NCBI RefSeq assembly: GCF_030684315.1
Contig: NC_081387.1
Location: forward strand, 21,756,647-21,820,646
Source of the DNA: Stegostoma tigrinum
Lineage: Eukaryota
Reading direction: 5' to 3'
Length of the DNA: 64,000 nucleotides
Shown: piece after piece, positions 12,101 to 57,816 of the stretch
Layout of the letters: each line of letters starts with the position of its first letter
How positions within the stretch are numbered: the first letter of the stretch is position 1
Program-made: the position numbers and the translations under genes
The notes under the pieces: model-generated
Database searches by the model: none
Told to the model about the DNA's origin: nothing
Seen by the model: the letters and a program-made list of their open reading frames with translations, nothing else

Positions 12101-15100
12101 ATCTTACAGGAAGAAAGGTTTTTGCCCTGCAGTTGTCTGTTTGAGCGTGTTCAGTCAGCGCACTCTATAAAGCGCGGTGTAGTACAGATATCTGTGACTC
12201 CGACACCATGAGTAATTTTGTTGCTTCTTCCTTCCTGTGCAGATAGTCTCTGGGAACAACTAGGTAAGAGGCTACCAGTGAGGTGATGTGTTTCGGGTGA
12301 TAATTTGAAACAAGATCCTGTATTCCCTCTCAGGGATGTATGATATCCTGTGGCCGCTATGCTAAAGAAGAGCAAGGTGGTTCGGCCTGGTGTGGGCAAA
12401 GCTTATCCCTCAATCACCATTGATTTTAAAACTGATTCGTTTATCACTGACTTCAATCTGGAGACACAAGTAATAGTCTGGGAACCCAAGAGCAAATCCT
12501 GCCACGGCAAATAGTTGAATTTGAATTCAATAAAAATCTAGAAATAGTGGTAACTATGAAACTATTATCAATTGTTGGGAAAAGACCCATCTGGTTCACT
12601 GATGCCTTTTCGGGAAGGAAACTGCCACCCTTATCCAATCTGGCCTACATGTGACTTCAGACCCACAGCATCATGGTTGACACTTTATATCTGCCCTGTG
12701 GGCCATTAGGGTATGGGCAATAAACGCTGGTTTGGACGGCAACGCTGTCATCCTGTGGGTGACACAGTGTCTCAGTGGTCAGCACTGCTGCCTCACAGGG
12801 CCTGGGTTTGACCCCACCCTTGGGCGACTGTCTGGCTGCACATTCTCCCCACATCTGCATGGGTTTCAACTGGATGCTCTGGTTTCCTCCTGCAGTCCAG
12901 AGGTGTGCAAGTTAGTTGGATTGGCCATTCTAACTTACCCGGAGTCTCCAAGGATGTGTCAGTTATGTGCGTTAGCCATGGGAAATGCAGGGTTACAGGA
13001 ATAGAGGGATGGGTCTGGGTGTGATGCCTGACAGACAGTTGGTGTGTACTCATTGGACTGAATGGCCAGTTTCCACACTGTAGAGAGTCTATGGAAGACA
13101 GTTGGTCTGTAATGATAGCCTCCCACTAGCAAGGATATTTCTGTCTCCAGGGCCACCAAACATGCCTTTCAATTGAAATGGATGGAAGCTGAAGCAAATG
13201 GAGAGTTCAAGATAATAAAATGTGAGGCTGGATGAACACAGCAGGCCAAGCAGCATCTCAGGAGCACAAAAGCTCTCTCTGATGAAGGGTCTAGGCCCAA
13301 AACGTCAGCTTTTGTGCTCCTGAGATACTGCTTGGCCTGCTGTGTTCATCCAGCCTCACATTTTATTATCTTGGATTCTCCAGCATCTGCAGTTCCCATT
13401 ATCGCAAATGGAGAGTTGATGTGTTTGGCAAGATCTGGACGAAAGGGAAACAGTTCCAGAATTTTAAAACAAATGACACGTTGACACAAATTACCAATGC
13501 CGGCCAAACATCTTCCTGGTCCATGCTGGTTTTTATGCACCACACAAACTGCTCACCTTGCAGTCTGCTGTGCCACCACCCACCCACCCACCCACCCCTA
13601 TCAATGGACTAACACTTCCCTACCTCAACCATGCCATGTGTCAGTGATTCTTACCATGTGACTGCTTTCTGGGCAAAAGAACTTCTCCAGAATTCTTCAC
13701 TTGAATAACTTATGACTTTTTTTTAATTCCCCCCCCTCCTTTCCATCCGTGTTCTGGACTTGTGTAGGAACAGGAGGCCATTCAGCCCTTCCAGCCTACC
13801 GTACCAGTTACTGAGATGACAACTGATCTGTAGCTCCACGTCCCCTGATACTTCCTGTCTGATTCGAGTTGCACTATCTCACTCTTTCCCACCTTTGGAA
13901 AACAACTTTCCCATGCCCTCTCAAAGGTTAACCTTAATTTGAAATTCCTCCATCAGCTCAGGTGTTTTCAGAGTTCCTATCATTTTTGATCTGCTCTGAT
14001 AAGAGGTGAATGGACCAGCATCAATGGTTAAAGGATGTAACTTGGGAATAGAGATTTCCCACCATGTTTCTGTAACGGATTAAAGTCATTTCAGTTGTAC
14101 AACCCTGTGGGTCCACAGTTATACAAACGATGTTTTCTCAGATTTTGTGCTGAATGGTAAAAACATATTCAATGTAAATCTGCTCAATTCTTAGTCAGTG
14201 AAGAGCTTTATACTGCTAACTAATGTTCTTTTCCTTTTTAGGTAAAATTCGCCCTCTCCCTCAACTAGGTAAGGCATGGAGTAACTTTTCATCGTTATTA
14301 AGATGTGCGCATCACTGGTTGGGCCAAAATTTATTCCCCATCACTAATTTCCCTTGAAGGTAGTGATGAGTTGTAGTCCTGTAGGACTTAGAGACGTCTA
14401 AGAGAGCTGATGGGTGGGGTGTTGGGACTTGCAGGATTTAGACCCAGTGATGCTGAAAGAATACTGATTATATTCCCAAGTTAGAATGGTGTGTGGCTTG
14501 GAGGGAAATGTACAGGGGGTGGTATCTCAGGCACCTGCTGCCCTCGTTCTCTGGACGGCAGTGGTGCCTGGTTTGGGAGGACCTATCAAAGATCGTGTTA
14601 GGGGTGAATCTCACCTCTGTTCACCGCCACTAAACTCAGAGCTCACAGAGTCCACAACTAACCTCTGTCTGATACCCTGCCTCATCCTTTAAATATTCAG
14701 TCAGCTCGCCAAGACGTCTAAGCAGGCTCTGTTTTAGACACCTTTCTGAAAACTGCACAAATGTACAATGAATTATTTGGAGGTGATTTAATCCCAGTCT
14801 CCTTGTCCTTTTCAGCAATTCAGAGAATGACTGATGCTGCAGGTAAGAACTGTGCCTCCTCAATAACTCCATGTTGAATGGTGTTTCAGGCAGGGTAGAA
14901 GTGAGGACTACAATGAGGGAGTGAAGTGGGGAGGAGTGAATTGTTTATGTGGTGGTGAAGAAGTCGTTTCATGTGTGCATGAGTGTGGAGGTGAAGGTGT
15001 CAGTCCAAATGAATTGTGTGTAATTTGTATCTTGTTTTTGGCCTCCTCCAGTGCTGAGAGATCCTATTCAGCCCATTGAATTTGTGTTTGCATTTTGGAA

Positions 15101-17749
15101 GAGCTATTCAGTTGTTCCTCCTCCCTGCTGTTTTCCCCAAAAGCTACACATTTCCCCTTTAAGTATTTATCCAGTTCCCTTGCTTGATTGTTGTCTAGGG
15201 AAAAAAAATCTGTATCCTGTTTTTTTTTAACCTATTTATTAGCAATCTGTGTCATCAGATTACCGACCCTCCTGCCACTGACAACTGAGAAAATGAGCAT
15301 CTATTCAAACTCCTGAATGGATCGATCAAATCTCCTCCTCATAGAATTAATGAGAGGATGATGTGGCAGAGGTCTTGCTCCCCTGTTAAATTTAATATTT
15401 AGTCATTGTTACTCTCCCTAAGGACATATTGCATTCAATATCCACAAGTCCTCATTGTAAAAGTTTACTTATTCACAGAATTTGTTGGCACAGAAAGAGG
15501 CCACTCAGTGCAACTAGGTTTGAGCTGGCATTCGTGTTCCATGTGCTCCCCCCCCCCAAAAAAAAATAATAAAGTAAGGTGGTATGGGATTCAGGGGAAT
15601 TTGGCTGTCTGGATACAAAACTGACTGTACAATAGAAGACAGAGGGTGGTAATAGATGATTCAGCCTGGAGCTCAGTGACCAGTGGTGTTCTGCAGGGAT
15701 CTGTTCTGGGACCTCTGCTCTTTGTGATCTTTATATAATGAAGTGGAAGGGTGGGTTAGTAAGTTTGCTGATGATACAAGGGTTGGTGGAGTTGTGGACC
15801 GTGTGGAGGGCTATTGTAGGTTGCAACAGGATATTGACAGGATGAAGAGCTGGGCAAAGAAGTGGCAGAAGGAATTCAACCCAGAAAAGTGTGAAGTGAT
15901 TCATTTTGGAAGGTCGAATTTGAATGCAGAATACAGGGTTAATTGAAGGATTCTTGGCAGTGTGGAGGGATCTTGGGGTCCACGTCCATAGATCCCTCAA
16001 AGTTGCTACCTAAGTTGATTGGGCTGTAAAGCAGGCTTATAGTGTGTTGGCTTTCATTGGCAGGAGAATTGAGTTTAAGAGCTGAGAGGTTATACTGTAG
16101 GTCTATAAAACCCTGATTAGATCACACTTGGAGTACTGTGCTTGGTTCTGGTTGCCGCATGAGAGGGTAGTTGTGGAAACTTTAGAGAGGCTGCAGAGGA
16201 GATTTACCAGGATGTGGCCTGGACTGGAGGGCAGGTCTTATGAGGAAAGGTTGAGGAAGCTATGGCTTTTTTCATTGGAGCGAAGAAGGATGAGATAGAA
16301 GTGTACAAGATGATGAGAGGCATAGATAGAGTTTTTTAGCCAGAGACATTTGCCCAGGGTGGAAATGACTATTATGAGGAGGCATAATTTTAAGGTGATT
16401 GGAGGAAGGTATGGGGAAATGTCAGATGTAGGTTCTTTACACAGAGAGTGGTGGACATGTGGAATGCGCTGCTGATCGTGGTAGTGGAGTCAGATACTGC
16501 AGAGACATTTAAGTGACTCTTGGATAGGCACATGGATGATAATAAAATGTAGGGTATGCAGGGTAATTTGATCTTAGTTGGATAATAATTTGACACAGCA
16601 TCGTAGGCTGAAGGGCCTGTACTGTGCTGTGCTGTACTGTTCCTTATCTCTATGTTTTGTTCTAGAATGGGGAACCTGCTAAGGAGAGCAGTTTCACCTA
16701 AATTCACCATTGGTAACTGTCTTTTGTTTATAGACCCTGGTTCTCCTCCCCTCTCTGGATCACTAATGTTCTTACAGCAAAGGTAACTGCTGTCCTCATC
16801 TGGTCTCGTCTAAATGTAACTCCAGACTCACTGCTGTGGATGACTGTCAGGGTAAATTAGGGATGGCCTAGCCAGTGATACCCACAATGTGAATGAAATT
16901 TAAAAAAATTAGGAGCCGCAGCCTATCGAGTGGATTAACAAGGAAGTTAAGGATAGCAGGTTAGGACAGAAGCTGAATAAATGATAATAAGAGCAAAAAG
17001 TAGGAGAGAATGGGTGACTGTGCTAATAGCAACCCATGTCATAACAGGACCTGGTGAGGGGTTGGTGAAAAACATGGAAGGACGGAATCAGGCTCTCGAG
17101 TTATTGCCGTGTCCAAGAGACTGCAGGGTCCCCAAGCAGAAATTGAGAAGTGTTTCTTTAAGCTTCTGCTAAACCTATCTCTTGCTCTTCCAACCTTTTT
17201 TGTTTTGTAGACTGCATTGAACTGGACTGTGACACTGCGAATCCAAACCTCCTGATATCCTCCGATCTGACCACCATGAGCTGCACTGCAGAAGGGAAGT
17301 TTCTTGCTGACAGCAGTGCGAGATTCGAGCACAGATTGGTCACGTTGGGAAAGACTGGATTCACCAGTGGCAGGCACTATTGGCTGGTGGAAGTGGACAT
17401 GCACTCCGTCTGGGACCTGGGAGTAGCCAGGGAGTCGGTAAGCAGGGAAGGAAATCTACCTTTGATCCCTGAAAATGGATACTGGACTATTCGGCACGAT
17501 GGGAAGAAATACTGGGCCAACCTCACCAGCCCTTTGGAAATCATGTGCAAGGAAAAACTCCAGAGAATTGGAATATATGTCAACTACAATGCTGGACAGG
17601 TCCTGTTCTGTGATGGCGCTACCTACTCACACCTCCACAGTTTCACTTCCAGCTTTGAGGGGATGATCTACCCCTTCTTCAGTCTCTCGGGGTCTGGCAA
17701 ATGTTCCATTTTGCCATCAATCACCCCACTTTCCAATTGGAATCACTGA
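3122..17749 (+). CDS. Butyrophilin-like gene A (SP-IgV-IgC-TM-juxtamembrane micro-exons-B30.2), about 502 aa
   Basis: join(3122-3197,5240-5584,7434-7712,8966-9085,9613-9639,10533-10559,11306-11326,12243-12263,14242-14268,14816-14842,17211-17749) = 1509 nt, open frame, all introns GT-AG phase 1. Confidence 0.9.
5240..5584 (+). CDS. Gene A IgV exon
   Basis: DNFQISCTQYPVVVEVGATAVLECQL..EIRWSK..VHLY..YKDRTQLF..GNVSLKL..DNGKYKCFV; B7/BTN-type V domain; cctag acceptor, A|gtaagt donor. Confidence 0.95.
6700..6890 (-). mobile_element. HE1-like SINE 3' fragment
   Basis: Matches the SINE copies at 22550-22880 and 12760-13095 (aggccattca..gagtccacactgaccctc..ggccaattcacctaacctgcacatctttg). Confidence 0.65.
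7434..7712 (+). CDS. Gene A IgC (CD80-like C2) exon
   Basis: FGEWPLI..GIQLQCESENWFPPPTVQW..FNCLLKS..EFYVP; ggcag acceptor, G|gttagt donor. Confidence 0.92.
8966..9085 (+). CDS. Gene A transmembrane exon
   Basis: DEFHPKTSVWLYIFLLIFFGILGLIIGLFLFFRKQKRHIR; 120 nt, same length as in gene B. Confidence 0.92.
9613..9639 (+). CDS. Gene A micro-exon 1 (27 nt, DLKKRPTTT)
   Basis: Polypyrimidine-ccag acceptor, G|gtgaga donor; paralogous to ELNERPTIK of gene B. Confidence 0.85.
10533..10559 (+). CDS. Gene A micro-exon 2 (27 nt, DYSWKKSNN)
   Basis: ttttag acceptor, G|gtaagt donor. Confidence 0.8.
10843..10960 (+). mobile_element. Degraded PLE 3'-end fragment (family 2) with mutated hammerhead core
   Basis: CTGAAGAGGAGCCACTGGACCCAAAACATTAA followed by a tail resembling 57859-57975 and 39272-39400. 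Confidence 0.55.
11306..11326 (+). CDS. Gene A micro-exon 3 (21 nt, VELRQVM)
   Basis: Long T tract with ttcag acceptor, G|gtaaga donor. Confidence 0.8.
12243..12263 (+). CDS. Gene A micro-exon 4 (21 nt, DSLWEQL)
   Basis: tgcag acceptor, G|gtaaga donor. Confidence 0.8.
   Translation: MVSGNN
12760..13095 (+). mobile_element. tRNA-derived HE1-like SINE
   Basis: tRNA-like head (..ctcagtggtcagcactgctgcctcacag..gggtttgac), central core, CR1-like tail ending ttccacactgtag. Confidence 0.75.
13208..13403 (+). mobile_element. Hairpin PLE 3'-end insertion (family 1) with hammerhead core in the loop; 14-bp TSD
   Basis: Inverted arms 13208-13274 and 13307-13373 (one mismatch); TSD GCAAATGGAGAGTT at 13194-13207 and 13404-13417; core CTGATGA at 13279, GAAA mutated to AAAA. 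Confidence 0.9.
14242..14268 (+). CDS. Gene A micro-exon 5 (27 nt, GKIRPLPQL)
   Basis: tttttag acceptor, G|gtaagg donor. Confidence 0.8.
   Translation, partial: VKFALSLN
14816..14842 (+). CDS. Gene A micro-exon 6 (27 nt, AIQRMTDAA)
   Basis: tttcag acceptor, G|gtaaga donor; paralogous to AAERVIAAA of gene B. Confidence 0.85.
15575..16650 (+). mobile_element. 5'-truncated CR1 LINE (RT C-terminal part and 3' end)
   Basis: VLQGSVLGPLLF, SKFADDTRVGG, FNPEKCEVIHFG motifs; ends in (ctgtg/ctgta)n tail. Confidence 0.9.
17211..17749 (+). CDS. Gene A B30.2 (PRY-SPRY) terminal exon
   Basis: IELDCDTANPNLLIS..RF..GFTSGRHYWLVEV..WDLGVA..PENGYWTI..IGIYVNYNAGQVLF..IYPFF; tgtag acceptor; TGA at 17747-17749. 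Confidence 0.95.
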
Positions 17750-20334: not shown

Positions 20335-22080
20335 GCCAGAACTTGTTCTCATGGGAAGGTAGTGATGAGCTGTAGCTTTAAGTCCCTATGCTCTTTGGGT
20401 TGTGAGTTCCAGGTTTTTTACCGGCAACATTGAGGAGCAGCACTGTGCTTCTGTGTTTGGAGGTGGGTGACTTGGAGGGGAGCTTGGTGGTGTTTCCATG
20501 TACCTGTTGCCCACACCCTTCTAGGAGTTTGAGGTAGGCGCTGTTGAAAGAGGCTTCCCAAGTGACTGCAGTTATATATAGTATACAGTGCTGCTTCTGA
20601 AGGTTTGAACACCCAGGTGCTTGAGCAAGTGCAGTCACTACAATTGAAATATTCCATGGATCATGTCTTCCAGAATATGATGACTCTGCAGCTACAGAGG
20701 ATTCGGGGATGGGAACTGGATGGCTACAAGCAGTCAGTTGTTAGAATTTTCCAGGAAGGAACGTGGCTCTTTCTTTCAAACAAGCTGAGTATCAGAGAGG
20801 GTTGTAACACTTAGGGGACAGCAATCTAAAGTACATCTGCAATACACAGGGTCAAATTACCATGTCATGGAGCCCAGCAAAGTGACAAAAGTGCATTCTC
20901 AGGTTAAGAGTCCCACATGGTATCTCACCTCCCTGATCCAGGGTAAACAGCATCACTGAAAGGGTGTAGGATGCTCCGCCAGAGAAAGGGAACAACCAGA
21001 AATTGTCTTCCTCTTTAGCATATGCAAGGAAATGTTTGAGATCTGGCAGGGTTACCGGAGTTTCAACGAATCTCAGTGTCCCACAGTCACGCTGACAACC
21101 GGAAGGTCGATTGTGTAGTTGATGAAATGGTGCAAGAGGTAAGATTTTGAATCCTGAGATATGGGCACCATTTCAGGGGCAGGACAGACTTCCTCAAGGT
21201 GAAGGAGAACTGAAAGCCATGTTCTTGCTGGAATGTTGGTTTATGCTGCAAGGGGGGTGGGGGGAATGGGCAATAAGAGAAGAAACAAGGTACACACAGT
21301 TTTAAAAAAAACGCCAGAGGTTGCCGGGGGGAATGCAAAGCAGATTAACATATCTTTGGAGTGTGTTTGTGTGTGCTTGTATGAGAGAGTGAGAAAGAGA
21401 GAGATGGAGAGAGAAAATGCATTGAGGCAAGAAAACTGCAGGCATAAGTCATTGCACAGGATCGCAGCAGCAATAATGGACTCCTAGAAGCAGAGCAGAG
21501 ATGGGAGCCTCAACTTCTGAGTACGTAATATTGAAGGGAACGAGGAGTTTGTGGTACTATTATTTACAGATTTTGTAATGGAGAGGGAGATGATGTGGGA
21601 TTGAAGGTAAATACAGGGTGTAATCCGTAGGCAGCAGAATAGTGCGAAGGAGGTTGAGGAGTAAGTGTACAGAATTTTATTTAATTCACTCATGGGATGT
21701 GGGCATTGCTGGGCTGGTCCAGCATTGATGGCCCATTCCTAGTTAACCTTGGTAATAAGCTGTTCTGAATCACCGCAATCCATTAATGTGGATCTATCCA
21801 CAATGCCATTAGGAAGAAAATTCCTGGATTTTGATTCAGCAAAATTGTAGGAACGGCAATATATCTTGAAGTCAGGATGGTGAGAGACTTGGAATGGAAT
21901 TTGCAGGTGGTGGTTGTCCCATGGATTTCTGCAGAACAACTTGTAAATGGTACACTGCTGCTACTGAGTGTTGGTGGTAGGGGCAGTGGATGTCTGTGGT
22001 GCACACACAATGCTCGAGAAACTCAGTACGTTTGGCAGCTTCTGTGGAGAGAGAAACAGGTCCAGTATATCTGTTCCTCC

Positions 22081-22132
22081 GAGATAATGAAATGTGAGGC
22101 TGGATGAACACAGCAGGCCCAGCAGCATCTCA
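22081..22132 (-). mobile_element. Short PLE family 1 3'-end fragment
   Basis: gagataatgaaatgtgaggctggatgaacacagcaggcccagcagcatctca matches the left arm at 13208. Confidence 0.8.
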
Positions 22133-22549
22133 CTAGCCACTGAATTTGTAGCTCATACAGCTCAATGTCTGGTCAATGCTATCCCCATGGTATTGAGCAT
22201 AAAGAGTTTGATGGTTAGATCCTCTCCTTTTGGAGATGGTCATTGAAGGTTTGCAGGCAAAGCGTTAAACTGAAGTTTCAAGCTTTTTTCTTTGTAAATT
22301 CTGCTTTACCTGTTTGTTTTAGTTATTAAATTGTTAATGAGCACGTACATACAACCATTACACCTGTTTGGGATAAGATTTTATCTTTTGAAAATGGGAG
22401 GATTTTATTAATGTTTCACAGTGTGTCAGTACTCCTTTTAAGAGACGCTCATGATTTTGTCACTCTACCATAACATGGGGGTACAAGGATCTCCTATGTC
22501 ATCTTACCATGGAATAACTAGGATTTAATGAATGATTTCAAGCCCGTCA

Positions 22550-23700: not shown

Positions 23701-25055
23701 CAAGTCCAACCTCTTTAATATTAAATTTCTTTTTGCTTCTCAGTTACGCACTTGATCACTTAATATTTCAAGATTTCCCATATTTTTATGTGAAGTAGGA
23801 TGCAAGCTAATTATTTTCAGTATAATTGTTATATCAGTATTAATGTTAAATCTGTTTTTCTGTCTTTCCACAGACGTTCCTGGACTTGTTCAGCTTCTCC
23901 AGCCTTTTATATTTTTACGTCAACTTTCCGTCATTTGCATATTTTGCTTTAAAGCGTTTGGTTTCTCTGCTGTACAGTTACCCTGTCTCACAACTCTTTG
24001 AGGCCCACATCTGTCCTTGCTAATCTTTTCCCTTTGACATATTGAGTGAAGTTTTTACACTTCACGTTGACATTCCTCACTAGGTTGCACTCATATTCTC
24101 TTTTCAATTTCATTATTAGTTTATTGGCCCTCCTTTGCTAGGTCCTAAACTGTTTCCAGGTATCAGATTTATCACTATTTCTGACCACTTTTGTAAGGGC
24201 TGTTGTGGTGCAGTATCCTTTCTCTGACCAGGAGACTGGGGTTCAAGTTTCACTTACCTCAGACGTGTGTTAAACAGGTTAATTTGGAAAAATATCTCTG
24301 AACAACTGTTATCTCTTGTGGTTGATTAACCTATCCCTTTGGGTATTTGTGCCTGAGAAATTGTGTATCTGTTGTAGGTCTTGCAATATTCTTTTAAAAA
24401 ATTGCTAGCCATTGCTGACTAGAATCAAATCTTTGTGTCTTTTCCCCAATCTGCTACACCCAACTTGTCCCCTGTGACCTCATATTTTATATTGCTCAGT
24501 TTTACAACGCTGGCTTCAATATGAAATATCTCACATTCAAACCTCTTGTAAAATTTTATGGTTATTTTACCTGCACCTTTCATTTACAGCAAGGTTATAA
24601 ATCAACCCTTTCTCATTATACAACTGAGTTAACTCAGTTTGTACTCAAATTGTGGCCACCCATTGTTATCCATATTACATACTTCTAATTTCCTGATTTA
24701 TAACTTGCCTAATATTAGTAGTACAATTTGATGTTCTATAAACAACTCCCACCAATATTTCCTTCCTCTTGCTGTTTCTCAGCTACACCCAAATGGATTT
24801 TACATCTTGACCTTTGATCTCAGATTGTCTGTTTCTTAAGTACCGAAGTCATTCTTTCATAGGAGGCTCTACCCCCTGTTACCATTTTGTCTGTTCCTCC
24901 TAAATATAGAATATCTTTGAGACTGGGAACTGGACATCAAATCACCTTATAGCTGTGCCTCAGTATCTCAACTTGTACATTCAAAACAACATCCTATTTG
25001 CAAAAGACATCAGCATTCAGATTCAGAGTGATTATCCAGCCTTTCTAATATTATT

Positions 25056-25189
25056 TCTTATTTCTGATGAAGGATCTAGGCCCGAAACATCAGCTTTTCC
25101 GCTCCTAGGATGCTGCTTGGGCTGCTGTGTTCATCCAGCTCTACACTTTGTTGTCTTGGATTCTCCGGAATCTGCAGTTCCTATTATCT
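25056..25189 (+). mobile_element. Solo PLE family 1 3' end with hammerhead core; 15-bp TSD
   Basis: CTGATGAAGGATCTAGGCCCGAAACATCAG at 25064; TSD CTTTCTAATATTATT at 25041-25055 and 25190-25204. Confidence 0.85.
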
Positions 25190-26934
25190 CTTTCTAATAT
25201 TATTCTTCATTTTGACCCTACTTGATGTTTGCCATTGATTCATCTTCAGTTTCTTGCTAACTGCTATTCTACTTCCCTTTACCAGTTTTACTTCCATCCA
25301 ATCTGAGCTCCCTTTTGGGTTTCCTTTCCCTGTCAATCTCGACTAAACCCTCCCCAACAGCACTCTCTGTGAAGATGAAAGTCCTGCCAAGATGTAACTT
25401 GTCCATCTCGTATCAGCCTCAACTGCCTCAGAATAGGCCACAGTGTCTCAGAAATCTGATACTGTCCCTCCTACATCCTCCTTGTAAATTTGTAAACTGT
25501 TCTAACAAACACTTATTGCTGCTAAGATTTGATCAACCATGATACAATGACTCAATGTTACTTTTCTATGCTAATGAGTGTGTGGAACTTTGGGATGGAG
25601 GGAGATGGGCTAATGCTTTGGTGGTACACCTTCTTAAATCCTCTCCTAGTTCTTTCAAATCTGCTTACATGAGTCCATCCCCTGTCCTTACTAAGAAATT
25701 GAGCATATCCTGTGGCTGTTCACTTTCTCCTTGAGGAATGTATTCAATAACCTCCTTGACCCTGGCACCACAGGGGCAACATACCATTGTGGACTCACAC
25801 TTACTACTTGTTCCCCTAAGTGAAGAATTCCCTATCAGTTCTGCTTTTCCACACTTCTTTCCCCACAGTGGAGAAGGTGCAGCTGAACCACCAGTGGTGT
25901 TACTGAGTTGACTCTGACTACATTCTCCTGAGGAATTATCGCCCACGCTACCCACAGCGAAAACCTAATCTGTGAGCGACATGGTAGCTGGAATCTCTGG
26001 CGTTACTTGACCAGTTCTCTTGAAATGCCCAGCAGCCACTCATTCCCAAGCTGCCTGCATGCCACTGTTTTGTTGTGCAACCACTTCCCTAAAAATGTTA
26101 ACTATGCCATCCTGCACCTTGTAGATGCATAACAATGACTTCAGCCACCTCTCGATGTCTGAAACCCAGGTGTGGAACCCATGAAACTTCCTGCATTCTG
26201 CAGATACGTTCATCTAAGACACGTGGTGGGTCCAGGGCTAATCCCATACCACAGTCTATACATTCCACTTGACGGAGCTGCCTTGCCAAATCTTAACTGC
26301 AAGAAGTGTTCATTACAGCAGAACAGTTTACAAGTTTCTCATGAATACTGCTCCTCCATTGCACCAAAGGAAGATATAAATACTGGATGGCGAAGAAAAT
26401 AGGTTTTAAAAATGGTGAAAAGAATCTCACTGTTCCACCCCCTCAAACACACACTGCTTAAAACTTACACTCCATTTGAAAAATACATGATGACCCCTGT
26501 GTTTACAGATATTTCTAATCAATTTGTTGAAGCATCTTATGGCACACACCCAGGGTAGGTGGGACTTGAACCTGGGCCTCTTATCTCAGAGGTAGGGGTA
26601 CCACCACTGTATCATACTGCTTTGAGATAGACTGCAGTGACCAGACTCTCTATTTTTTCTAATCGGCTATTCTGCAATACAGCTTGTTTACCATGCTTTG
26701 GGCTCACTATCTCACATGATCTCACTTTAGTTCTTAGGCTGTAAAATGCAAGATACAGGCTACACATTTAAAAAGCTACTGATACTTAATGTGCCAGTGA
26801 GCAAACTTATTTTTCTCAAGATCTCCACTTTGGAGTTGGAATAGATGAATTTAGAGGAAACAAAAGGATGAATGAGGGTTTCAGAAATAGATGAGCTAGG
26901 ACGGGCCAGAATCCGGGCACTGTTACAGAGGTGG

Positions 26935-27235: not shown

Positions 27236-27514
27236 AATGATTAGATCACACTTGCAAAGAGGCTCGGTGGAAGATTCTCTGCCTGAAAATTATTGGTCTT
27301 CTGGAACAAGGAATTGACCTCGACTGAGTGCTACAGATGCGCACATTCCACTGTCAAGGAGTATGTGCTGAGGGATTCACTAAACCTTGGGGCAGCTGCC
27401 ACCAAGGTGCACTGGTGAAAGATTACTATCTAAGGTCTTCCTGCTAAAGGTAAATATGGGTCCATTCAGTTATTGGACACTGCCAGTGCCTCACATTCAT
27501 GTAAATATATCAGA

Positions 27515-29200
27515 GATAATGGGAACTGCTGATGCTGGAGAATCCCAGATAACAAAAGGTGGAGCTGGATGAACACAGCAGGCCAAGCAGCATCTTAGGA
27601 GCACAAAAGCCTAGATACTTCATCAGAAAAGGGAGAGGGGGAGAGGGTTCTGAAATCAATAGGGAGACAGGGGGAGGTGGATTGAAGATGGATAGAGGAG
27701 AAGCTAGGTGGAGAGGAGACAGACAACTTAAAGAGGTGGGAATGGAGCCAGTGCAGGTGAGTGTAGGTAGGGAGGGGATAGGTCAGTACAGGGAGGACGG
27801 ACAGGTCAAGGGGGCAGAATGGGGTTAGTAGGTAGGAAATGGGGCTGTGGCTTGAGGTAGGAGGTGGGGATAGGTGAGAGGAAGAACAGGTTAGGGAGGC
27901 GGGGACGAGGTGGGCTGGTTTTGGGATGCAGTGTGGGGAGGGGAGATTTTGAAGCTTGTGAAATCCACTTTGATAGCATTAGGCTGCAGGGTTCCCAAGC
28001 GGAATATGAGTTGCTGTTCCTGCAGCCTTCAGGTGGCATCGTTGTGGCACTGCAGGAGGCCCAGGATGCACATGTCATCGGAAGAGTGGGAGGGGGAGTT
28101 GAAATGGTTCATGACTGGGAGATGCAGTTGTTTACTGCGAACTGAGTGGAGGTGTTCTGCAAAGTGGACCCCAAGCCTCCGATTGGCTTCCCCGATGTAG
28201 TAGAAGCCACAACAGGTACCGCAAATGCAGTCTACCAAACTGACAGATGTGCAGGTGAACATCTGCTTGACATAGAAAGTCTTTTCATCTCCTGGGATGG
28301 GGCTGAGGGAGGAGGTGTGGGGGCAAGTGTAGCACTTCCTGCAGTTGCAGGGGAAAGTGCCGGGTGTGGTGGGATTGGAGGTGAGTGTGGAGCGGATAAG
28401 GGAGTCACTGAAAGAGTGGTCCCTCCGAAGGCAGACAAGAGTGGGGATGGAAAAATGTCTTTGGTGGTGGGGTCGGACTGTAGATGGCGGAAGTGTTGGA
28501 GGAAGATGCATTGTATCCGGAGGTTGGTGGGGTGGTATGTGAGGACAAGGGGGATTCTCTTTTGGTTGTTATTGTGAGGACGGGGTGTGAGTGATGCGTT
28601 GTGGGAAATGCAGGAGATGCTGTCGAGGGCGTTCTCGACTACTCCGGGGGGAAGTTGCGGTCCTTGAAAAACAATTACATCTGAGATGTAGGGAGTGGAA
28701 TGCCTCATCCTGGGAGCAGATGCGGTGGAGGCGAAGTAATTGGGAATATGGAATGGAATTTTTTCAGGAAGGGGGGGCCGTGCGGGGTTGGGGAACAATG
28801 AGTTTGGAGGCTGTGGGTGGGAGGTCACCCGAGGTGATGAGGTTGTGGATGGTTTGGGAGAGGGTGGTTTGGTGCTTGGGGGTGGGGTCATGATCCAGGG
28901 AGCGGTAGGAGGAGGTGTCGGAGAGTTGGTGATGTAGAGGTCAGTGTGCCATACTACTACTGCGCCTCCCTCGTCTGTGGGTTTGATGGTGAGGTTGGGG
29001 TTGGAGCGGAGGGCTGCACATTCTGTAGGGGAGAGGTTGGAGTGGGTGAGAGGGGTGGAGAGGTTGAGGCGATAGATGTCCCAACGGCAGTTGGAGATGA
29101 AGAGGTCGAGGGAGGGTAGGTGGCCTTGGGGTGGTGTCCAGGAGGAGGACTTGTGTTGGAGGTGGGTGAAGGGGTCAGTGGAGGGATGGTTAGGCTCACG
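27515..29200 (-). mobile_element. Degraded Penelope-like element: pre-RT region, internal deletion of the RT core, GIY-YIG endonuclease, 3' end
   Basis: ORF 28029..28511(-) GTFPCNCRKCYTC..FTCTS..YYIGEANRRLGVHFAEH..HFN is a PLE GIY-YIG domain; 28777-29190 is homologous to about 149-570; 27515-27630 is the family 1 3' end. Confidence 0.9.
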
Positions 29201-29356
29201 GTTAGAGAAGTAAGGGTGGAGGCCGAGGCGGCTGTAGGCGGGTATATAAATATAGTCTGGTTCAAGTAAGAGATGCCTTGGATTTGTTTGGTTACAGTCA
29301 AACTCTTATTTGTTTTCCTGATATGCTAAGGACTGAACTGTGTGAAAGACATAGTC

Positions 29357-29590
29357 GGAACTGCAGATGCTGGAGAATTGAGATAACAAGGTGTAGAGCT
29401 GGATGAACACGGCAGGCCAAGCAGCATGAGAGGAGCAGGAAGGCTGACGCTTAAAGGGTCCAGATGCTTCTTCAAAAAGGTAAAGGTCTTCATTTTCTGA
29501 AGAAGGTTCTAGACTCTAAACGTCAGCTTTTCTGCTCCTCTGATGCTGCTTGGCCTGCTGTGTTCATCCAGCTCTCCACCTTGTTATCTC
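29357..29590. mobile_element. Older hairpin PLE 3'-end insertion with two degenerate hammerhead cores
   Basis: Inverted arms about 29380-29473 and 29498-29590; CTGAAGAAGGTTCTAGACTCTAAACGTC. Confidence 0.8.
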
Positions 29591-31092: not shown

Positions 31093-31689
31093 TGCCTGCA
31101 GAATATTCCTGATTTTAATCAGTTAAGTTTACAGTCTCGGGGGAAGACCATTCAGCCTATCATGCCAATACTTGTGGATAAGGAGGCATCTATACTATTG
31201 TGCCTTCCTGGCCTTTGACTGTGCGCCACTGCAATACAAGTGGGTGTCTGAATATTTTTGAGTGTGATGAAGGTTTCTGCCTCCACCAGTGAGTTCCAGT
31301 ACAACTGGAATTGTGGATACAAATTACATTCTGGATGCAAATGTCTTCCCTTAAATCCTGCCAACCCCCCTCCCAAATTCTCCTGTCTCTCATCCTAAAT
31401 CTGTGCCCCCAGTTATGGATCCTCACTCATGGGGTGATGTTTTTCAAATCCACTCAATTTAAACTCCTCATTATTATACACAGCAACCAAATCTGCCCCC
31501 AGACTCCTTTGTCCCAAAGTAAATGGCTCCAACAGGCCCACACTTCCTCATTGTGAAAATTCTTCAATTTAGGCAATGTGCTCATAAATCTCCTCTATCC
31601 CTTTTCTACTGTTATCACATCTTCCCTTTTTGTGGTGTCTGGAACTGTAGACAGTGCTGTGTCTAACTGGTGTTTTATACTCGGATAGT

Positions 31690-32195
31690 AAGAACTGCAG
31701 ATGCTGGAGTCAGAGATAACAGTGTAGAACTGGAGGAACGCTACAGGTCAGGCAGCATCAGAGGAGCAGCAAAGTTAACATTTCAGGTCAGGGCCCTTCT
31801 TGAGAAATGGGGAGGGGGAAGGAAAACTGGGAAATAAATAGAGAGGAGGGGTGGGGCTGGGGAAGGTAGGTGGGAGGGTGATATGTGAGTGCAGGTAGAC
31901 AGTGGTGGGGATTGGTCGGTGAGGTGAATAGGTGGGAGAGATGATGGTTAGGTTGTATCAGGTCAAGGAGGTGGGGTTGAGAGGGAGGATTGAACGTGGG
32001 ATGAGGCCAGGGCTGGGGAGATTTTAAGCTGGTGAATTCCATGTTTAGGCTATCGGACTGTAGGCCCCTGAGGCGGAATATGAGCTGCTCCACTGTGTAG
32101 GCGGTGTCACGGTGACACTGCAGGTGGCCCAGGATGGACACATCACCCAAGGAGTGGGAGCGGGAGCTAAAATGGTTTGCGACCAGAAGGTGTTG
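31690..32195 (-). mobile_element. Older PLE 3' fragment (GIY-YIG C-terminus and 3'UTR)
   Basis: ORF 31788..32150(-) VSILGHLQC..EQLIFRLRGLQSDSLNMEF; homologous to 27520-28130. Confidence 0.8.
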
Positions 32196-38600: not shown

Positions 38601-41600
38601 CAGAGCTGCCTCCGCATCCCAGGTCAGTGAGCGCACTCAACTGCCGAAAGGGGCATTGCTCGTTTTCTAGTCCACTGTGGAAACTCCTGGACATTTTCCT
38701 GCCAATTAAATCCTCTGTTGACATCAGGGCTCCCTCTGCAGAGATGTTTCCGGTCCAGTCCCAAGGAAGTACTGTACTCCTAAGTCAGAGCCTAGGAATC
38801 TCACAGTGAGTAACTCACCTCCTAAATCCCCAAAGCCTGTCCACCATCTACAAGGCACAAGTCAGGAGTGTGACGGAATACTCCCAACTTGTCAGGATGG
38901 GTCCAGCCCCAACAACACTCAAGAAGCTTGACATCATCCAGGACAAAGCAACCTGCTTGGTTAGCACAATATCTACTCCCTCCATCACCGACACTCAGTA
39001 GCAACAGTGTACTATTGACAAGATGCACTGCACTAAATCACCAAGGCTCCTTAGATGACACCTTCCAGATCCTTGACCATTACCAACTAGAAGGACAAAG
39101 GCAGCAGCTACATGGGAACATACCTTGGTTAGCTCTCAGTTGACTGGATGGCTGGATGTGTGATGTCGAGTGATGCTGTAGTGAGGATTCAGTTCCCTCT
39201 GAGGTCGTCATGGAGGTCCCATGCTCTCAACCTTCTTCCAACCTTCCTTACTGACTTTGTCGTCTGCTTTTCTGAAGGAGAGTTATAGTGGACTTGAAAT
39301 GCTGGCTGTTTCTCTCTCCACAGATGCAGCCAAACCTGCTGAATTTCTCCAGCATTCTTTCTGAATCTATTTCAGCTTTTCACATTACTTTGCTTTTATT
39401 TGAGATCAGGACGTTGATTAGGCTAACACCAGCTGGACGGAATGAATTGACTCCTGCTGTGGCATAAATGTAATCAGGAGTCATGGTTGGTCTCCATCAG
39501 GGCAGAAAGCAGGTTCTTTTCACACTCGCCATCAATGATCCCAAGGCCAGGAAGTAAGGGAGCTGATTTCTAAACTTGCCACCTGCCTCCTTAGATCCTG
39601 GCAACATGCTTAACGCCTAGTCAGATAGTTCCCTGACAGCCCAGACCCCTCAACAGCCAGGGGTTAAGATGACACAGATGTGTGCTCATAATCACTTTCC
39701 CACTTGCTGGTGGTTAGATTGGTGATGGGAAGACTTCGTTGGCGACAAAGAGGCCTGCTTGGGTAGGGCGGGGCGGGATGGGGTGAGGTGTGCTAAGGAT
39801 CAGAGCTGCAGCCCATTTGATAACTTCACTTTTAATGGAGCTTTCTTCTGATTCCATTTCCAGATGAATTCTTTCCCAGGATGTCACGTTTCTTCACCGC
39901 CTTCATCCTGTTTCTCATTTTACTCTTTGGATTACTGGCAGCTGCCGGTTACTATCAGTACAAACAGCAGAAACATATAAAAGGTATGACGTCCTGGTCA
40001 CTGACCAAGAAAGGCACCATTCTGAGAGGGGTCGCCACTTTAAAACAGGGTGACAGTTTGACACTTGATAACAAAGTATGGAGCTGGATGAACACACCAG
40101 GCCAAGCAGCATCTCAGGAGCACAAAAACTGACGTTTCGGGCCTGGACCCTTCATCAGACACATGTTGCCATTTGAATGGAATGTGGTAATTGTGAAATG
40201 GTAGCTTTTGCTTTGGAATCAAGGCATTTTGGGCACTGGTTGCCACAGTGAGATGGAGTGCCATCTTTGTGTCAGTGCACCATGCTGAATTGGGCCCAGG
40301 CACCATTTTGAGAAAATTCTGAGGAAAGGGACCATTTTGTCGCTTGGTGCTATTTAGAGACAAAATCTTGCCACTTTCAGATTTGAAATGGGGCAAGAAA
40401 ACATATGTTGTGCTTGAGTTGAACAGTTGCATTGTAAGAATAGTGAACAGATACTCAAAGGGGTCTTTGGAGATTTGGATTCTGATGAGGAGGTGTAGGG
40501 GGAGGGTCTGCGGTAGGGTAGAGTGCATTCCACATGGTAGAACTGTGAATCCAGAGAGTGACAGGAAATTGTATGCCCACTATTTTACAATATGCTTTCT
40601 GATTAAAGGTGGGGGGAAAGGATTTGGCTTTCACAATGCAAGAAGTATTGTGTGTATGATTATGGCATAACTGTGTACCTCTTGAGGAATGCACGTGAAG
40701 GTATGTGTATATGTGTCAAATCTAATGGTGCAGCATATGGAAAAACCTCTCTGTTCTCTTTCAGAGCTAAACGAACGCCCAACAATCAAAGGTATGTAAT
40801 GTTTCATTTAAGCATTTGCCTCTTTCCCCCTCCGTATCACTTGTATGACAGTGATTCAATGATTAACTCTCATATCCCTGACTCAGCAGGTCAGGGGCTA
40901 ATATCCCACTCTGTAGAGATATTGGCAGGGAGGCTAGGTTCTTACTTCCAGGGCATCCTGAGGGAATACCGTGATGTCCTCGATGCCATCTTCCCAATAG
41001 CACCTTAAACCGAGGGCCTGTCCTTGGGTGGATGCCAGTTTCTTTGTCAAACTGTTTTGTTCCGTATTTTCTGAGGCTTTTCAAACTGTTGCCCTTGGAT
41101 TTGGTTTGTGAGAATTAGAATTGCCACTGGATGAACTGTGGGAGTTTTGGCCATTGCCAAACCCAGAATCTCAATCTATGAATTCAGCCCTTGGCAGGAG
41201 CAGTTTGGGACAGCGGAGCCCATGTGATCCAATCATTTTAGGTCAGCGACAGGGAAAAGAGTTGATAGTGGAGAAATGTTGGTGAGATTCTTTTTGTGAA
41301 GAGACAGATGTAGACAACTGGTTGGGTGAAGCTACTAATAGTAATAATGATTAAATGGTGGGATAGCCTCAAGGGCCTTAACGGCCTATTCCTGCTCCTT
41401 GTTCATACATTCAGTACAGAGGAATATGTACCCAGCCTGCCAGTCTGGCCTACTCCTGAATCTGGGCCCACGATGACATGGTCCATCAGTGAAGCTCTCT
41501 GAGGGACCCTGGAAGTCATTGAAGATATTTCATCGCCATTTCCTTAATAATTCACTGAAGGAGAGGTCAGGGACACCTACCTCTTCAAAACGAATCATAA

Positions 41601-47600: not shown

Positions 47601-50363
47601 TGCGATTTCTCCACTCAACTTTCCAAATGGTAACTCTATTCATTGACCATTTTCTCCAGAACTCCCACCAATTTTCACGTTATCTGCAAATGTACTAATC
47701 AGACCACCTACATTTTCATCCAAATAATTTATATATACTACAAACAACTGAGGTCCCAGCACTGATCCTTGTGGAACACTACTGATCACTGTTCTCCAAT
47801 CAGTAAAATACCCCCCCCCCCCCCACAACTACTCTCTGTCTTCCAAGATCAAAGCCAATTTTGTATCCGACTTACCAACTCACCCTAGATCCCATGTGCC
47901 TTAATCTTCTGGTCCAGCCTATCATGAAGACCTTGTAAAATGCTTTGGTAAAGTGCATGTAGACAACATCCACTGCCCACCCCCCTCAATTATCATTGCC
48001 ACCTCCTCAAAAAATTCAAATTTGTGAGACAAGATCTCCCTTGAATTAAGCCATGATGACTATCCTGAAAAAGTCAATTTTTCTCCAGACACGAGTGAAT
48101 CCTGCCCCTAAGAACTTTCTCCAATAATTTCCCTATCACTGATAAAAAACTCACCAGCCTATAGTTTCCTGCATTATCCCTGTTGCATTTCTTAAACAAT
48201 GAAAGAATCTTAGCTATTATCCAGTTGTCTGGGACCCTGCCTGTGGCTAAAGAGGGTACAAACATCTCTGTCAAGGTCCTATCAAACTCCTCCATTGCCC
48301 CCTTCAGTGTCCCAGATCCCGTCAGACCCTGGGAACTTATCTGCCCTAATGTTTTACCAACACCAGCTTTTTCAAATTGACAAGCCCCAGAATATCAACG
48401 TACCCCCCTCTCATCTTACCATGATCCATGTCCCTCTACTTGGTGAATGCTGGTGGAAAGTATGCATTGAGGAACAACCCCACTTCCTGTGGCTCCACAC
48501 ACAAATTCCTACCTTTGTCCTTGAGTGGACCTACCCTTTCCTGAGCTACCCCTTGCTCCTAATATATGTATAAAATGCCTTGGGATTCTCCCTAATCGTA
48601 CAAGCCAAGGACACCTCATGGTGCCTTCTGTCCTTACTAATTTTGTGTTTAAGTTCTTTTCAGCCTGCTTTGTACTTTGCAAGACCTCAAGTGATGCTGA
48701 CAGCTGCTGAATGCATGTGTAGGGGGGTGGCGGCAGGGTTGTAGGTAGTGGTTATTTGTCCCAGAATGAGTCAAGCTGTGTTGGTGGTGCATGAGTGGGG
48801 TGCTGCTGCTGGTGCTGGTGGTTGTGGTTGAAGAAAATGTTCAACGATCCTTTAACTTCAATTCTCTGTGTTTTCAGCTGCCGAAAGGGTCATCGCTGCT
48901 GCAGGTGAGGAGGGGTTTTCTGGTCACTTTGACACGCTCTTCCCCCATTTCCTGGGAATCACGCTGGGAGTTCTGTTCCACTCCCTTCAGGTTTAAGACA
49001 ACCAGAACTCTGTCTTTGATGGGGAGTTAAACTATGAAGGTCATCCTTTGAGAAGTGCAGTTTAAGGTCGCAGAGCGTCATGTAAAGAGCAGGAGAATTC
49101 TCCAGCCAATCATTCATCCCTCGACGCATTAAAACCTGGCACAGTCTCCTCAGGTGCTGGTCAAGTTTGTACACACCCTGTCTCTATGGCCCTGATCATG
49201 CACATTAACTGTTGAACTGATTTTTGGTACTTTTAAAAAAAAAAAAAAAGTTGCTTCTATTGTAACTCCCTCAATAACGTGTTCTGGGGGAAGAGTTCCA
49301 GATCTTCACTCTCCTTTGTGTGAAAAATTGCCTCCTGTTGTAGCCCGAACAGCCTTGTTTAGGATTTGAGATTCTGTCCTTCTGTACCCTGCCCCCAACA
49401 CAACCAGACGGAATTGCTTCTCCCTCTCTCCCTCCGATCAAATCCTTTAACTATATTAAATATGTCAGTTGGAACATTCCTTCAGTTTCTATATTTATGA
49501 TATATAAGACCAGATCTATTTAATCTTGTTCACTACTTCAGTTGTATTTTGGTGGAACTGTGATGCATCCACCCCAAGGCGACCAAAGCCTCTTTCTGTA
49601 TTGGTGCCCAGAACTGTGTGGTATATGGGACTTGATAGAATCTCAATCCATTTCAACATCCTTTTCTACCGTAGGGAAAAGGCAATGGACTGATGGGGTA
49701 ACTCTACCAAAGAGCCGTTACACTCACCATAGGCTGAATGGCCCCCTCCTATGCTGTGGTTCTTTACACGTTCTCCAGTTGCACACTCACACCAGTGATT
49801 TCTGGAGAATGCTGAAAGTTGACCTGTGACTTCCTTTTGTGTTGACAGTACCTGTGACCTATGACCCAGAGACCGCCAACCCCTACCTGATAATCTCAGA
49901 GGACCAGCTGACCGTGACATTCAGTGAAAATTGGCAGGACCTTCCGGAAAGCCCAAAGAGGTTCATCTCCCAGCTCTTTGTGACTGCAAAAGAAGGGTAC
50001 AAGAGTGGGAGCCAATACTGGGAGGTGCTGGTGGGCAACAAGCCTGACTGGGATCTGGGAGTGGTCAAGGGATCCGTCTCCAGGAAAGACTGGATCACAC
50101 TGAGCCCGGAGAACGGGTATTGGACCATCGGGAAGCGGGGTGATGCCTACGAGACCCATGAAGCGGAGCCTGTAAAACTTGAGTACAGGAGGATTGCTTC
50201 GAAAATTGGCATCTACCTGAACTACAAGGAGGGGACAGTTCATTTCTATGATGCTGACTGCATGGTGCAAATCTGCAGCTTCACAGCAGAATTCACAGAG
50301 GAAATCTACCCATTCTTCAGCCCCTGGGGATCCCAACAGGGGATGACAATCTGCCCCCTTTAA
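32595..50363 (+). CDS. Butyrophilin-like gene B (SP-IgV-IgC-TM-juxtamembrane micro-exons-B30.2), about 493 aa
   Basis: join(32595-32652,35435-35788,38338-38622,39864-39983,40765-40791,42842-42868,44489-44509,45004-45024,46273-46299,48878-48904,49849-50363) = 1482 nt, open frame, all introns GT-AG phase 1. Confidence 0.9.
35435..35788 (+). CDS. Gene B IgV exon
   Basis: DVFRVTGPEAPVIATVGGVAVLECQL..MEIQW..YHGRTEF..GNISLRL..DEGDYLCMV; A|gtaagt donor. Confidence 0.95.
36711..38215 (-). mobile_element. 5'-truncated CR1 LINE (RT domain to 3' end) in gene B intron
   Basis: SQHGF..RSCL, VDVVYMDFSKAFDKVSH, LYKTLVRPH..YCVQFW motifs; same family as 15575-16650. Confidence 0.92.
38338..38622 (+). CDS. 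Gene B IgC exon
   Basis: LGQRPVIRLDGYQKDGIGLQCASSSWYPLPVMHWED..DGLYRVSSSI..FRCLV..LRIP. Confidence 0.93.
39864..39983 (+). CDS. Gene B transmembrane exon
   Basis: DEFFPRMSRFFTAFILFLILLFGLLAAAGYYQYKQQKHIK; 120 nt. Confidence 0.92.
40067..40160 (-). mobile_element. PLE family 1 3'-end fragment in gene B intron
   Basis: Matches arms at 13208 and 56896; includes an intact hammerhead core. Confidence 0.85.
40131..40158 (-). ncRNA. Minimal type I hammerhead ribozyme core (PLE-associated)
   Basis: Minus strand CUGAUGA-A-GGGU-CCAG-GCCC-GAAAC-GUC; helix I is weak, so monomeric activity is uncertain. Confidence 0.65.
40765..40791 (+). CDS. Gene B micro-exon 1 (27 nt, ELNERPTIK)
   Basis: tttcag acceptor, G|gtatgt donor. 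Confidence 0.85.
42842..42868 (+). CDS. Gene B micro-exon 2 (27 nt, EYVELCNQS)
   Basis: ttgcag acceptor, A|gtaaga donor. Confidence 0.8.
44489..44509 (+). CDS. Gene B micro-exon 3 (21 nt, NDLENNI)
   Basis: tttttcag acceptor, G|gtgagt donor. Confidence 0.8.
44725..44885. repeat. Degenerate about 36-40 bp minisatellite between micro-exons 3 and 4 of gene B
   Basis: Recurring (ggtcca)ggcagagatctgatccagat-like unit, about 4-5 copies. Confidence 0.6.
45004..45024 (+). CDS. Gene B micro-exon 4 (21 nt, ESATANL)
   Basis: Long T tract with cacag acceptor, G|gtaagt donor. Confidence 0.8.
   Translation, partial: RVRLLT
45520..45720. mobile_element. Old hairpin element, probable PLE 3' end (family 3)
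   Basis: aaagtcagaagtc..aacaggtttatttgaa inverted against ttcaaataaacctgtt..gacttctgacttt; minus-strand CTGATGAAGCAGC remnant near the loop. Confidence 0.65.
46273..46299 (+). CDS. Gene B micro-exon 5 (27 nt, DLEKRLCQT)
   Basis: ttacag acceptor, G|gtaagg donor. Confidence 0.8.
46820..48690 (-). mobile_element. CR1 LINE fragment (RT) in gene B intron
   Basis: GRVPDNWIIAKILSLFKK..NYRLVS, SVPQGSVLGPQLF..STFADNVKIGG motifs. Confidence 0.9.
48878..48904 (+). CDS. Gene B micro-exon 6 (27 nt, AAERVIAAA)
   Basis: ttttcag acceptor, G|gtgagg donor. Confidence 0.85.
49849..50363 (+). CDS. Gene B B30.2 (PRY-SPRY) terminal exon
   Basis: VPVTYDPETANPYLIISED..DLPESPKRF..GSQYWEV..WDLGV..SPENGYW..KIGIYLNYKEGTVHFY..IYPFFSP..TICPL*. 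Confidence 0.95.
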
Positions 50364-56720: not shown

Positions 56721-56891
56721 ATCTCATACTCAGTCCCGGGGGAAAGTGGGACTCGGTCTCGGAAACGAGCAGAGGCCTGTCCCGGAGACTGGGGTGGCCG
56801 GGCTGTGTGAGGATGACAGTTCACAGACCCTGGTTGAAGGGAAGAGTGTGTCCCGGGGAGAGTGGGTGGTAAATGGTAACCTTCTGTTCCC

Positions 56892-57106
56892 TTAAATAAT
56901 AAAGTGTAGAGCTGGATGAACACAGCAGGCCAAGCAGCATCTCAGGAGCACAAAAGCTGACGTTTCGGGCCTAGACCCTTCATCAGAGAGGGTCTAGGCC
57001 CGAAACGTCAGCTTTTGTGCTCCTGAGATGCCGCTGGGCCTGCTGTGTTCATCTAGCTTCACACTTTATTATCTTGGATTCTCCAGCATCTGCAGTTCCC
57101 ATTATC
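56892..57106. mobile_element. Young hairpin PLE 3'-end insertion (family 1); 13-bp TSD
   Basis: Arms about 56896-56979 and 56989-57072; TSD ACCTTCTGTTCCC at 56879-56891 and 57107-57119. Confidence 0.92.
56959..56986 (-). ncRNA. Minimal type I hammerhead ribozyme core (PLE-associated)
   Basis: Minus strand CUGAUGA-A-GGGU-CUAG-GCCC-GAAAC-GUC, with palindromic ACGU in place of helix III. Confidence 0.7.
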
Positions 57107-57816
57107 ACCTTCTGTTCCCGTGTCGGGCTGGAGAATCTGGGAGTTCCCAGCTCCAAACGGATTCCCTCTGCGTGATCGGGATGGCCCTAGGTTTCGCTGA
57201 ACCAGCATCCCCAAGTTAGAACAGAATCCGCATCTTAAAAATAAAGGTCAAATTCGTGCGTCAGACCACCCGCTCCCCACCAATGCTCGTATGTCCCTCC
57301 AGGTTGTATCATGAGCACGTTATCGGGAATATTGAACAGTTTGGAGAAGGCAGCTCACTGGCCCAGTATTAGCTTGAATGGTGTGTTTTTACTCGCTCCT
57401 TTATATCAGGAGGGTGTGGGTTCAAGTCCTATCCAGGACATCACCTTCAAGCCACAGACTCTCATTCCAGTGCAGAACTGAACGACTGCTGCAGTATTGG
57501 GAGTGCGGTCGGTTCCACGAGACTTTATCTAAAATCTCTTTCGATCTCTTGGTGGGGCGGAAGTCATGGTTGTGTGCAGGTAGATCGAAAAGATCCCGTG
57601 GCCAGCATTTCAAAGACGAGTACCGAATAATTCTCAATGTCCTGGTCAATAGTTATCCCTCAATCAACACTCCATAACAATTTGCCTTGTTACCTGCATT
57701 CCAACATTGATTACAGATCAGAAGTTCGCTTCAGGATGTGGATGCAAGGTGCTATATAAATGCAAACCTCTCCGCTGAAGGATGTCAATATTACTAAGGA
57801 GCTTGGTAGGATTGGT

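Follow-up and report, generated by a model that had tools for sequence, protein, structure and literature searches.

Short hammerhead-bearing insertions in the genome of Stegostoma tigrinum, herein referred to as minis, are truncated insertions of a Penelope-like element (PLE) that is abundant there, and lie at the short extreme of a continuous range of its insertions. Minis were probably made anew at each landing: both nicked target strands would prime cDNA inside the RNA, at two sites with a spacing of 33 bases, and synthesis would run off at the predicted start of an uncleaved RNA.

In total, the following PLE-derived elements and target site duplications (TSDs) were found in the window, that is, in the whole stretch of 64,000 nucleotides analyzed. 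Positions within the element are counted from the C of CUGAUGA (position 0), with the predicted cut site of the ribozyme between +27 and +28.

1..1756, arms on both strands: long head-to-head pair, with a minus arm from ORF residue ~24 at 1683 to past the window start, joined to a tail arm on the plus strand (1683-1756; +51..+124)
13194-13207 (left) and 13404-13417 (right), plus strand: perfect 14-bp TSD of the mini at 13208, from a repeat search
13208..13403, plus strand: mini, head-to-head pair, with an inverted tail-less arm (+28..+94) at 13208-13274 and a tail arm (-4..+124) at 13275-13403
22078..22135, minus strand: short tail-less arm, about +42..+93
25041-25055 and 25190-25204: perfect 15-bp TSD of the arm at 25056
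25056..25189, plus strand: single tail arm of an older variant, starting at about -4 behind a few extra bases
27508..29236, minus strand: 5'-truncated PLE copy with a deletion inside the RT, a kept endonuclease region and a decayed TATA-like box at 27661
29347..29590, minus strand: older mini pair, tail arm at 29480-29347 and tail-less arm at 29493-29589
31684..32192, minus strand: longer copy of old age, carrying a tail, an Inr-like motif and, at 31840, a TATA-like box
40067..40160, minus strand: lone tail-less arm covering about -1..+91, its core intact
56879-56891 and 57107-57119: perfect 13-bp TSD of the pair at 56892
56892..57106, plus strand: mini pair, with an inverted tail-less arm to -4..-6, a tail arm from +7 and a microhomology overlap

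The first-pass annotation had listed five minis, three clean TSDs and three fold-backs, and these were recovered. The five elements lie at the claimed places, the TSDs of 14, 15 and 13 bp are perfect, and fold-back arms were confirmed at 13208-13274 versus 13307-13373, ~29380-29474 versus 29497-29589, and 56896-56992 versus 56989-57072. The TSD at 13194 was missed by the automatic caller, because the profile model overran the left arm, and was seen in the repeat search. The element reported at 29357 is present but has to be redescribed: it lies on the minus strand with the tail at the left, to about 29347, its cores are decayed, both of its arms start near -4/-5, and ~12 nt of filler separate them. 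The element at 40067-40160 is likewise present, as one tail-less arm, and no clean TSD was found at either of these two places. In the pair at 56892, for which folding gave z = -22, two subfamily-marker sites differ between the arms. The minis had also been matched to the end of the PLE copy at 27515. They do derive from the PLE end, but this copy cannot be their source because part of its hammerhead (+16..+29) and ~760 nt of its RT are deleted. The copies at 1-1756, 22078-22135 and 31684-32192 add to the elements listed in the first-pass annotation. The most complete PLE copy of the window is the minus arm of the pair at 1-1756, which has 90% amino-acid identity to the sampled stretch L257. 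The hammerhead core was identified from sequence motifs; no hammerhead was called by Rfam (E<=1) for these minimal hammerheads, which gave only weak matches to miRNA hairpins.

For the endonuclease-region protein of the parent PLE, 267,567 first-look candidates were found in the 3.2-Gb genome. RT and endonuclease-like frames were found in ten stretches around long matches, in which two diverging arms of 0.4-2.3 kb recur. Units with the layout pLTR-ORF-pLTR, 3.50-3.66 kb in length, were found in four of the six stretches fetched for 5' ends (L255, L257, L259, and L260). In these full units the tail runs on into a short 5' UTR and is followed ~40 nt later by the ATG; because of this layout, the segment carried by the minis is the 3' end of the PLE and also the start of the next unit. 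The RT was recognized by matches to RVT_1 (E 2e-6 and 3e-4, both under the Pfam cut-off) and by a YIDD motif in long ORFs. All parent copies seen are broken. A YIGET...H-type motif after the RT was recognized by eye, with no Pfam match, and a cysteine-rich C-x3-C-x2-C linker between the RT and the endonuclease region suggests that the parent PLE may belong to the Neptune clade. These marks of EN+ PLEs were found: direct pLTRs from partial tandems, a 33-nt tail and inverted 5' copies. The core motifs of a minimal hammerhead are present in the pLTR. In a fold of two copies, stem II and the ACGU palindrome pair between molecules, and in a single-molecule fold of the 5' RNA the lowest-energy state is without a hammerhead. 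Additionally, a minisatellite of variable length was observed in the PLE ORF (L257 residues ~255-290; window 720-1295), where it lies between the N-terminal domain and the RT and codes for repeats of Thr/Ala/Asp/Pro.

The genome was sampled in 142 evenly spaced 10-kb stretches comprising 1,409,800 bases (1.41 Mb). A profile built from 50 long copies gave 366 arms in this sample. After removal of arms below 20 bits and of insertions <=80 bp from a stretch edge, 318 arms were left in 236 insertions, 82 of them head-to-head pairs and 154 singles. A TSD score of at least 8 was found for 55 of the 82 pairs and 29 of the 154 singles, compared with 4 of 600 in a flank-swap control. TSDs are 10-19 bp long, with a median of 14 for short (57) and long (17) insertions alike, and the same pair layout was seen with arms of up to ~2 kb. 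Insertions shorter than 300 bp account for 184 of the 236; by extrapolation, ~4e5 short copies are present genome-wide, part of which are probably decayed fragments.

The 5' ends of the arms proved strongly non-uniform and are concentrated beside the ribozyme, as the first-pass annotation had expected. On a profile model that has one extra base upstream, 128 of the 318 arms start at -8..+4 (9.8 per nt), 13 start at -40..-14 (0.5 per nt), and 7 start at the predicted cut site, +26..+30 (1.4 per nt). The peak at -8..+4 is kept in 40 of 124 young arms and in 15 of 29 singles with a TSD. Exact whole-genome counts, which cover one young variant, were 73,907, 67,616, 59,468, 50,823, 47,780, and 44,033 for matches reaching 0, -2, -4, -6, -8, and -14, respectively. 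The loss per base is 4.4% (0..-2), 6.2% (-2..-4), 7.6% (-4..-6), 3.0% (-6..-8), and 1.35% (-8..-14), with subfamily variants inflating the drops between 0 and -4. The excess loss amounts to ~28%, or ~20,600 copies, and its peak, several bases wide, is at -4/-5. Across the cut site the counts fall from 130,915 to 125,094 in a differently aged set; this loss of 2.25% per base means that at most a small share of copies starts there. One arm in the window (13208-13274) ends at the cut site. An RNA delimited by the ribozyme, which had been proposed as the source of the minis, does not agree with these ends: the pile-up lies ~32 nt upstream of the cut, and the short copies thus span an intact cut site.

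About two thirds of the young copies reaching 0 run past -8, so that long copies need another route, which could involve a jump, a circular form or a read-through transcript. A start at -4 was seen in none of the four full-length copies carrying two pLTRs; in these copies, whose stretches were picked by an internal probe, the 5' pLTR starts at -86, -244, +57, and +79. Several copies start at -86 to -93 (L255 1480; L256 1293, 724, and 2549; L200), which is possibly a minor stop or a second RNA end; among the arms found with the profile, six start at -93. Insertions with three arms, or with the ribozyme segment briefly started again in direct orientation, were observed in L010, L256 and G000:C1:2722793-2722897, which suggests repeated template jumps at the 5' end.

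Promoter-like motifs were found around the hotspot. The first T of TATTTAT is at -34/-35 in 50 of 55 long copies. The peak at -4/-5 lies 30 nt below this TATA-like box and falls on an Inr/TCT-like motif, represented by a pyrimidine initiator-like motif in young copies and by CCATTTC in old ones. The TATA-like, Inr and TCT labels are tentative and were assigned by comparing the motifs by eye with consensus sequences. A similar arrangement was found in a second PLE, herein referred to as family B:

Window, about 39267-39400, and sampled loci L121:3812-4500, L182:9811, L186:5899, and L249:249: family B, an older and divergent PLE with a CUGAGGA core

Upstream, family B carries an endonuclease region of its own (37% identity, L121); its five long copies show TCAGTT at -6..-1 and, near -33, a TATAAA-type box. 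Among 154 family B arms, taken from all retrieved loci and not from the even sample alone, 42 start at -6..-2, and most of the 33 pairs, as judged by eye, combine two 3' ends of different length. Position -4/-5 is predicted to be a Pol II transcription start, mainly because the spacing of TATA and Inr fits in two families with unrelated upstream sequence. In the anole RNA printed in PMC11167929, a TATA-like run and an Inr-like motif were noted by eye at ~44 and ~14 nt ahead of the core, respectively. No clear excess of a cap-derived extra G was found among the few informative junctions. In two contigs of another organism, from a run guessed to be RNA, the ORF is joined to core position -1; such contigs cannot show the start.

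The 3' ends cluster at +88..93 and +124..132, which are 33 nt apart and have TTATC at each (95 of 139 ends placed). A tail arm is combined with a tail-less arm in 74 of the 82 pairs, and in 53 of the 55 with a TSD (binomial p 2e-14 versus 0.5). In singles the two 3' ends are about equally frequent (82/72). Microhomology between target and template at the 3' junctions is 1-3 nt, with a mean of 1.41 nt versus 0.43 for shuffled TSDs (95 of 139 ends placed). Extension by at least 3 nt into 5'-UTR sequence was found for 47 of 55 short copies, reaching up to 18 nt in short and 23 nt in long copies, which fits priming on an RNA that continues toward the ORF side. Both RT start sites come after a CCAGC-N11-14-TTATC repeat (element +71..+91 and +101..+124) and lie within a small ATC-N3-GAT hairpin that may be a recognition motif.

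The protein of an anole PLE nicks and extends both strands, starting at two internal sites that bound the tail; it needs RNA downstream of these sites and uses uncleaved RNA (PMC11167929). In the mechanism proposed here for the minis, the template would be the 5' pLTR of the full RNA. The target would be nicked on both strands with a stagger of ~14 bp, and each nick would prime one cDNA, perhaps through a dimer acting on one RNA. Each strand would use one of the two start sites flanking the tail, and the cDNA would run off the capped 5' end of an RNA left uncleaved, at position -4/-5. End joining would then connect the two cDNA ends head to head, in many cases through the near-palindromic stem II. 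One successful primer would yield a single arm and two would yield a hairpin, and the ribozyme would be a passenger in short copies. In vitro use of the start sites without strand difference (PMC11167929) counts against strand-specific site use. Long copies could be formed by transfer to the 3' repeat, from a circular RNA (proposed in the accessible text of PMC4209133) or from RNA of an upstream tandem, and the data do not choose among these three routes. No sign of transfer between different masters was found, as linkage across the ribozyme is unbroken (r2 0.79, -90 versus +82, 25 copies). Tentatively, the process can be specified further as a target-primed strong-stop, in which the RT would begin at the tail sites close to the RNA 5' end, reach the cap after ~95/128 nt and have to transfer to the 3' repeat, the minis being failed transfers and the dimer assigning one site to each strand. 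If this is true, transfer would pick up the promoter-bearing 3' UTR and thereby give long copies and pLTRs.

The end at -4/-5 could instead be set by the ribozyme fold or a bound protein, through a stop of a 5'-3' exonuclease or a stall of the RT at the C-rich tract. A distance from hotspot to core that is constant across all subfamilies as well as family B would agree with this, as would the C-rich tract that begins at the hotspot in family A. Such an end is nevertheless unlikely: TATA/Inr spacing is right in two families, family B is without a C-run at this place, stem I covers only -1/-2, and a structural stall should fall at the 3' foot of stem II (~+20), where only 8 arms start (+16..+25). 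Even less credit is given to templates in the form of short RNAs from the 3' pLTR promoter of scattered truncated copies, mobilised in trans to give one-generation copies that lose the promoter. These RNAs would have the same 5' end as the preferred run-off, at least 44,033 young copies keep the sequence to -14, and the 3' pLTR of D. virilis holds promoter sequences according to the accessible text of PMC2377424. Their use appears improbable because the anole protein requires RNA downstream of the tail (PMC11167929) and because carry-over of donor flank is rare, with no extra bases ahead of the TSD in 28 of 36 TSD-confirmed short tail ends and a 5'-UTR match of 9-18 nt in four short copies.

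Two further alternatives concern the second arm and the status of the minis. Fold-back, one of two origins suggested in the first-pass annotation, would make the inverted arm a self-primed copy of the first strand, or a copy of an antisense template (PMC3846280, accessible text), resolved at the pre-tail site. Such copying would agree with the sharing of markers between arms, found in 38-42 of 43-45 cases per site (34 of 40 at one site) and at all of six marker sites in 27 of 45 young pairs. It would likewise agree with the correlation of arm starts within pairs (rho 0.73) and with the many junctions that overlap in palindromic stem II or AGCT. The shared variant and correlated lengths suggest one template for both arms. 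Two different RNAs were rejected as a rule, since the arms mostly share markers, and kept for a minority of pairs only: among young pairs not chosen by marker, 5 of 37 have arms that are discordant at two or more marker sites (1.0 expected, p 0.004), compared with only 1 of 26 in the evenly spaced sample. These 5 pairs also speak against self-copying. Furthermore, the inverted and the tail arm are equally often the longer one at the 5' end (17 each among 74 pairs, with 40 within 10 nt), the inverted arm holds sequence absent from the tail arm in 12 of 53 TSD pairs, and 12 of 29 TSD-confirmed singles have tail-less ends. Fold-back is thus quite unlikely and not supported as the main route. Two separate primings fit the arm data better than self-copying, with the test blurred by hairpin-tip deletions, as asymmetric apex deletions could mimic independent arm lengths. 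Least probable, and largely refuted, is the MITE-like family suggested in the first-pass annotation, here taken as self-propagating, or copying of short or circular RNA cleaved by the ribozyme. The extrapolated number of short copies, the hairpin shape and the TSDs would suit it, a minor surplus of starts at the cut is compatible with the counts, and a tree of 161 arms has slight clustering over all ages (43 label changes versus 50.6 shuffled, P 0.014). However, this clustering arises because short copies are commoner among old ones. When age classes are taken singly, short labels are mixed with long ones (20 changes versus 22.7 shuffled, P 0.14; 23 versus 22.6, P 0.67), to the limited power of 92-nt markers. 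Junction coordinates are distinct in 62 of 63 mini pairs, TSD length and layout are those of long copies, few arms start at the cut, and minis are without upstream promoter motifs. The claim that minis are informative about PLE integration held.

In LINE-1 twin priming, second-strand priming leads to an inversion with non-overlapping segments. Minis would share the second-strand priming and do share the inversion, but both of their arms copy one and the same 3' segment, and LINE-1-type twin priming was rejected on this ground. Retroviral minus-strand strong-stop DNA is a short cDNA extending to the RNA 5' end, tRNA-primed and not integrated. Minis would be alike in being short cDNAs that end at an RNA 5' end, but they are integrated.

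The parent element shares with EN+ PLEs the pLTR-ORF-pLTR layout, heavy 5' truncation, an inverted and truncated 5' copy, an optional 30-40 bp tail at one end only, TSDs, and a pLTR hammerhead, and a TATA/Inr-like pLTR motif is known in a rotifer PLE (accessible text of PMC3846280 and PMC8557442). As far as these texts go, the present insertions differ in comprising mostly the last 95-130 nt only, with a sharp 5' pile-up at the predicted start site, and in TSDs of 10-19 bp compared with 8-10 bp in the rotifer cases. The accessible part of the 2013 paper favours self-priming (PMC3846280), whereas the counts obtained here favour two primings. PAc, the Poseidon element of green anole, is similar in having two RT start sites that bound the tail at a near-equal distance from the core, in the nicking and extension of both strands, and in the use of uncleaved RNA as a template (PMC11167929). 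The ORF starts ~40 nt past the tail here and in stem II in PAc; complementary site use and short microhomology were found here, whereas neither strand difference nor homology is reported for PAc (PMC11167929). The minimal metazoan PLE hammerheads are alike in lacking a stem III loop, in the palindromic GAAAC-GUC core, in the bulged base before stem II, and in the many solo copies and close opposite-strand pairs; cleavage and circular templates are proposed for them, whereas the short copies here come from RNA spanning the cut site (PMC4209133, accessible text). Metazoan non-LTR retrozymes are also small, hammerhead-bearing, TSD-flanked and probably mobilised by PLEs, but they form direct tandem repeats with canonical ribozymes that give unit circles, whereas minis are single or inverted pieces of an autonomous element (PMC7229834, accessible text). 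Retrozyme identity was rejected, with 7 of 318 arms at the cut site and pairs inverted rather than in direct tandem.

The layout of inverted copy and tail, solo minimal hammerheads and internal initiation are already published. The 5' pile-up at the start site and the rule of one site per strand were not found in the literature searched, which included few subscription papers and was searched without Repbase or Dfam. PLE integration, the inverted and tandem ends, regeneration of the pLTR promoter and the role of the hammerhead are treated as open in the accessible text of PMC2377424, PMC8557442, and PMC11167929. The large natural record analyzed here separates the options, as the cut site is ignored, ends lie at the predicted start, and site use is complementary; what it adds is an account of PLE integration that is quantitative and can be tested. 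In annotation, hairpins of this kind belong under PLE ends and not under MITEs or miRNA precursors.

Additionally, two PRY-SPRY exons were identified in the window by Pfam, at 17162-17749 and 49830-50363. We presume that they are probably the ends of TRIM-like or butyrophilin-like genes.
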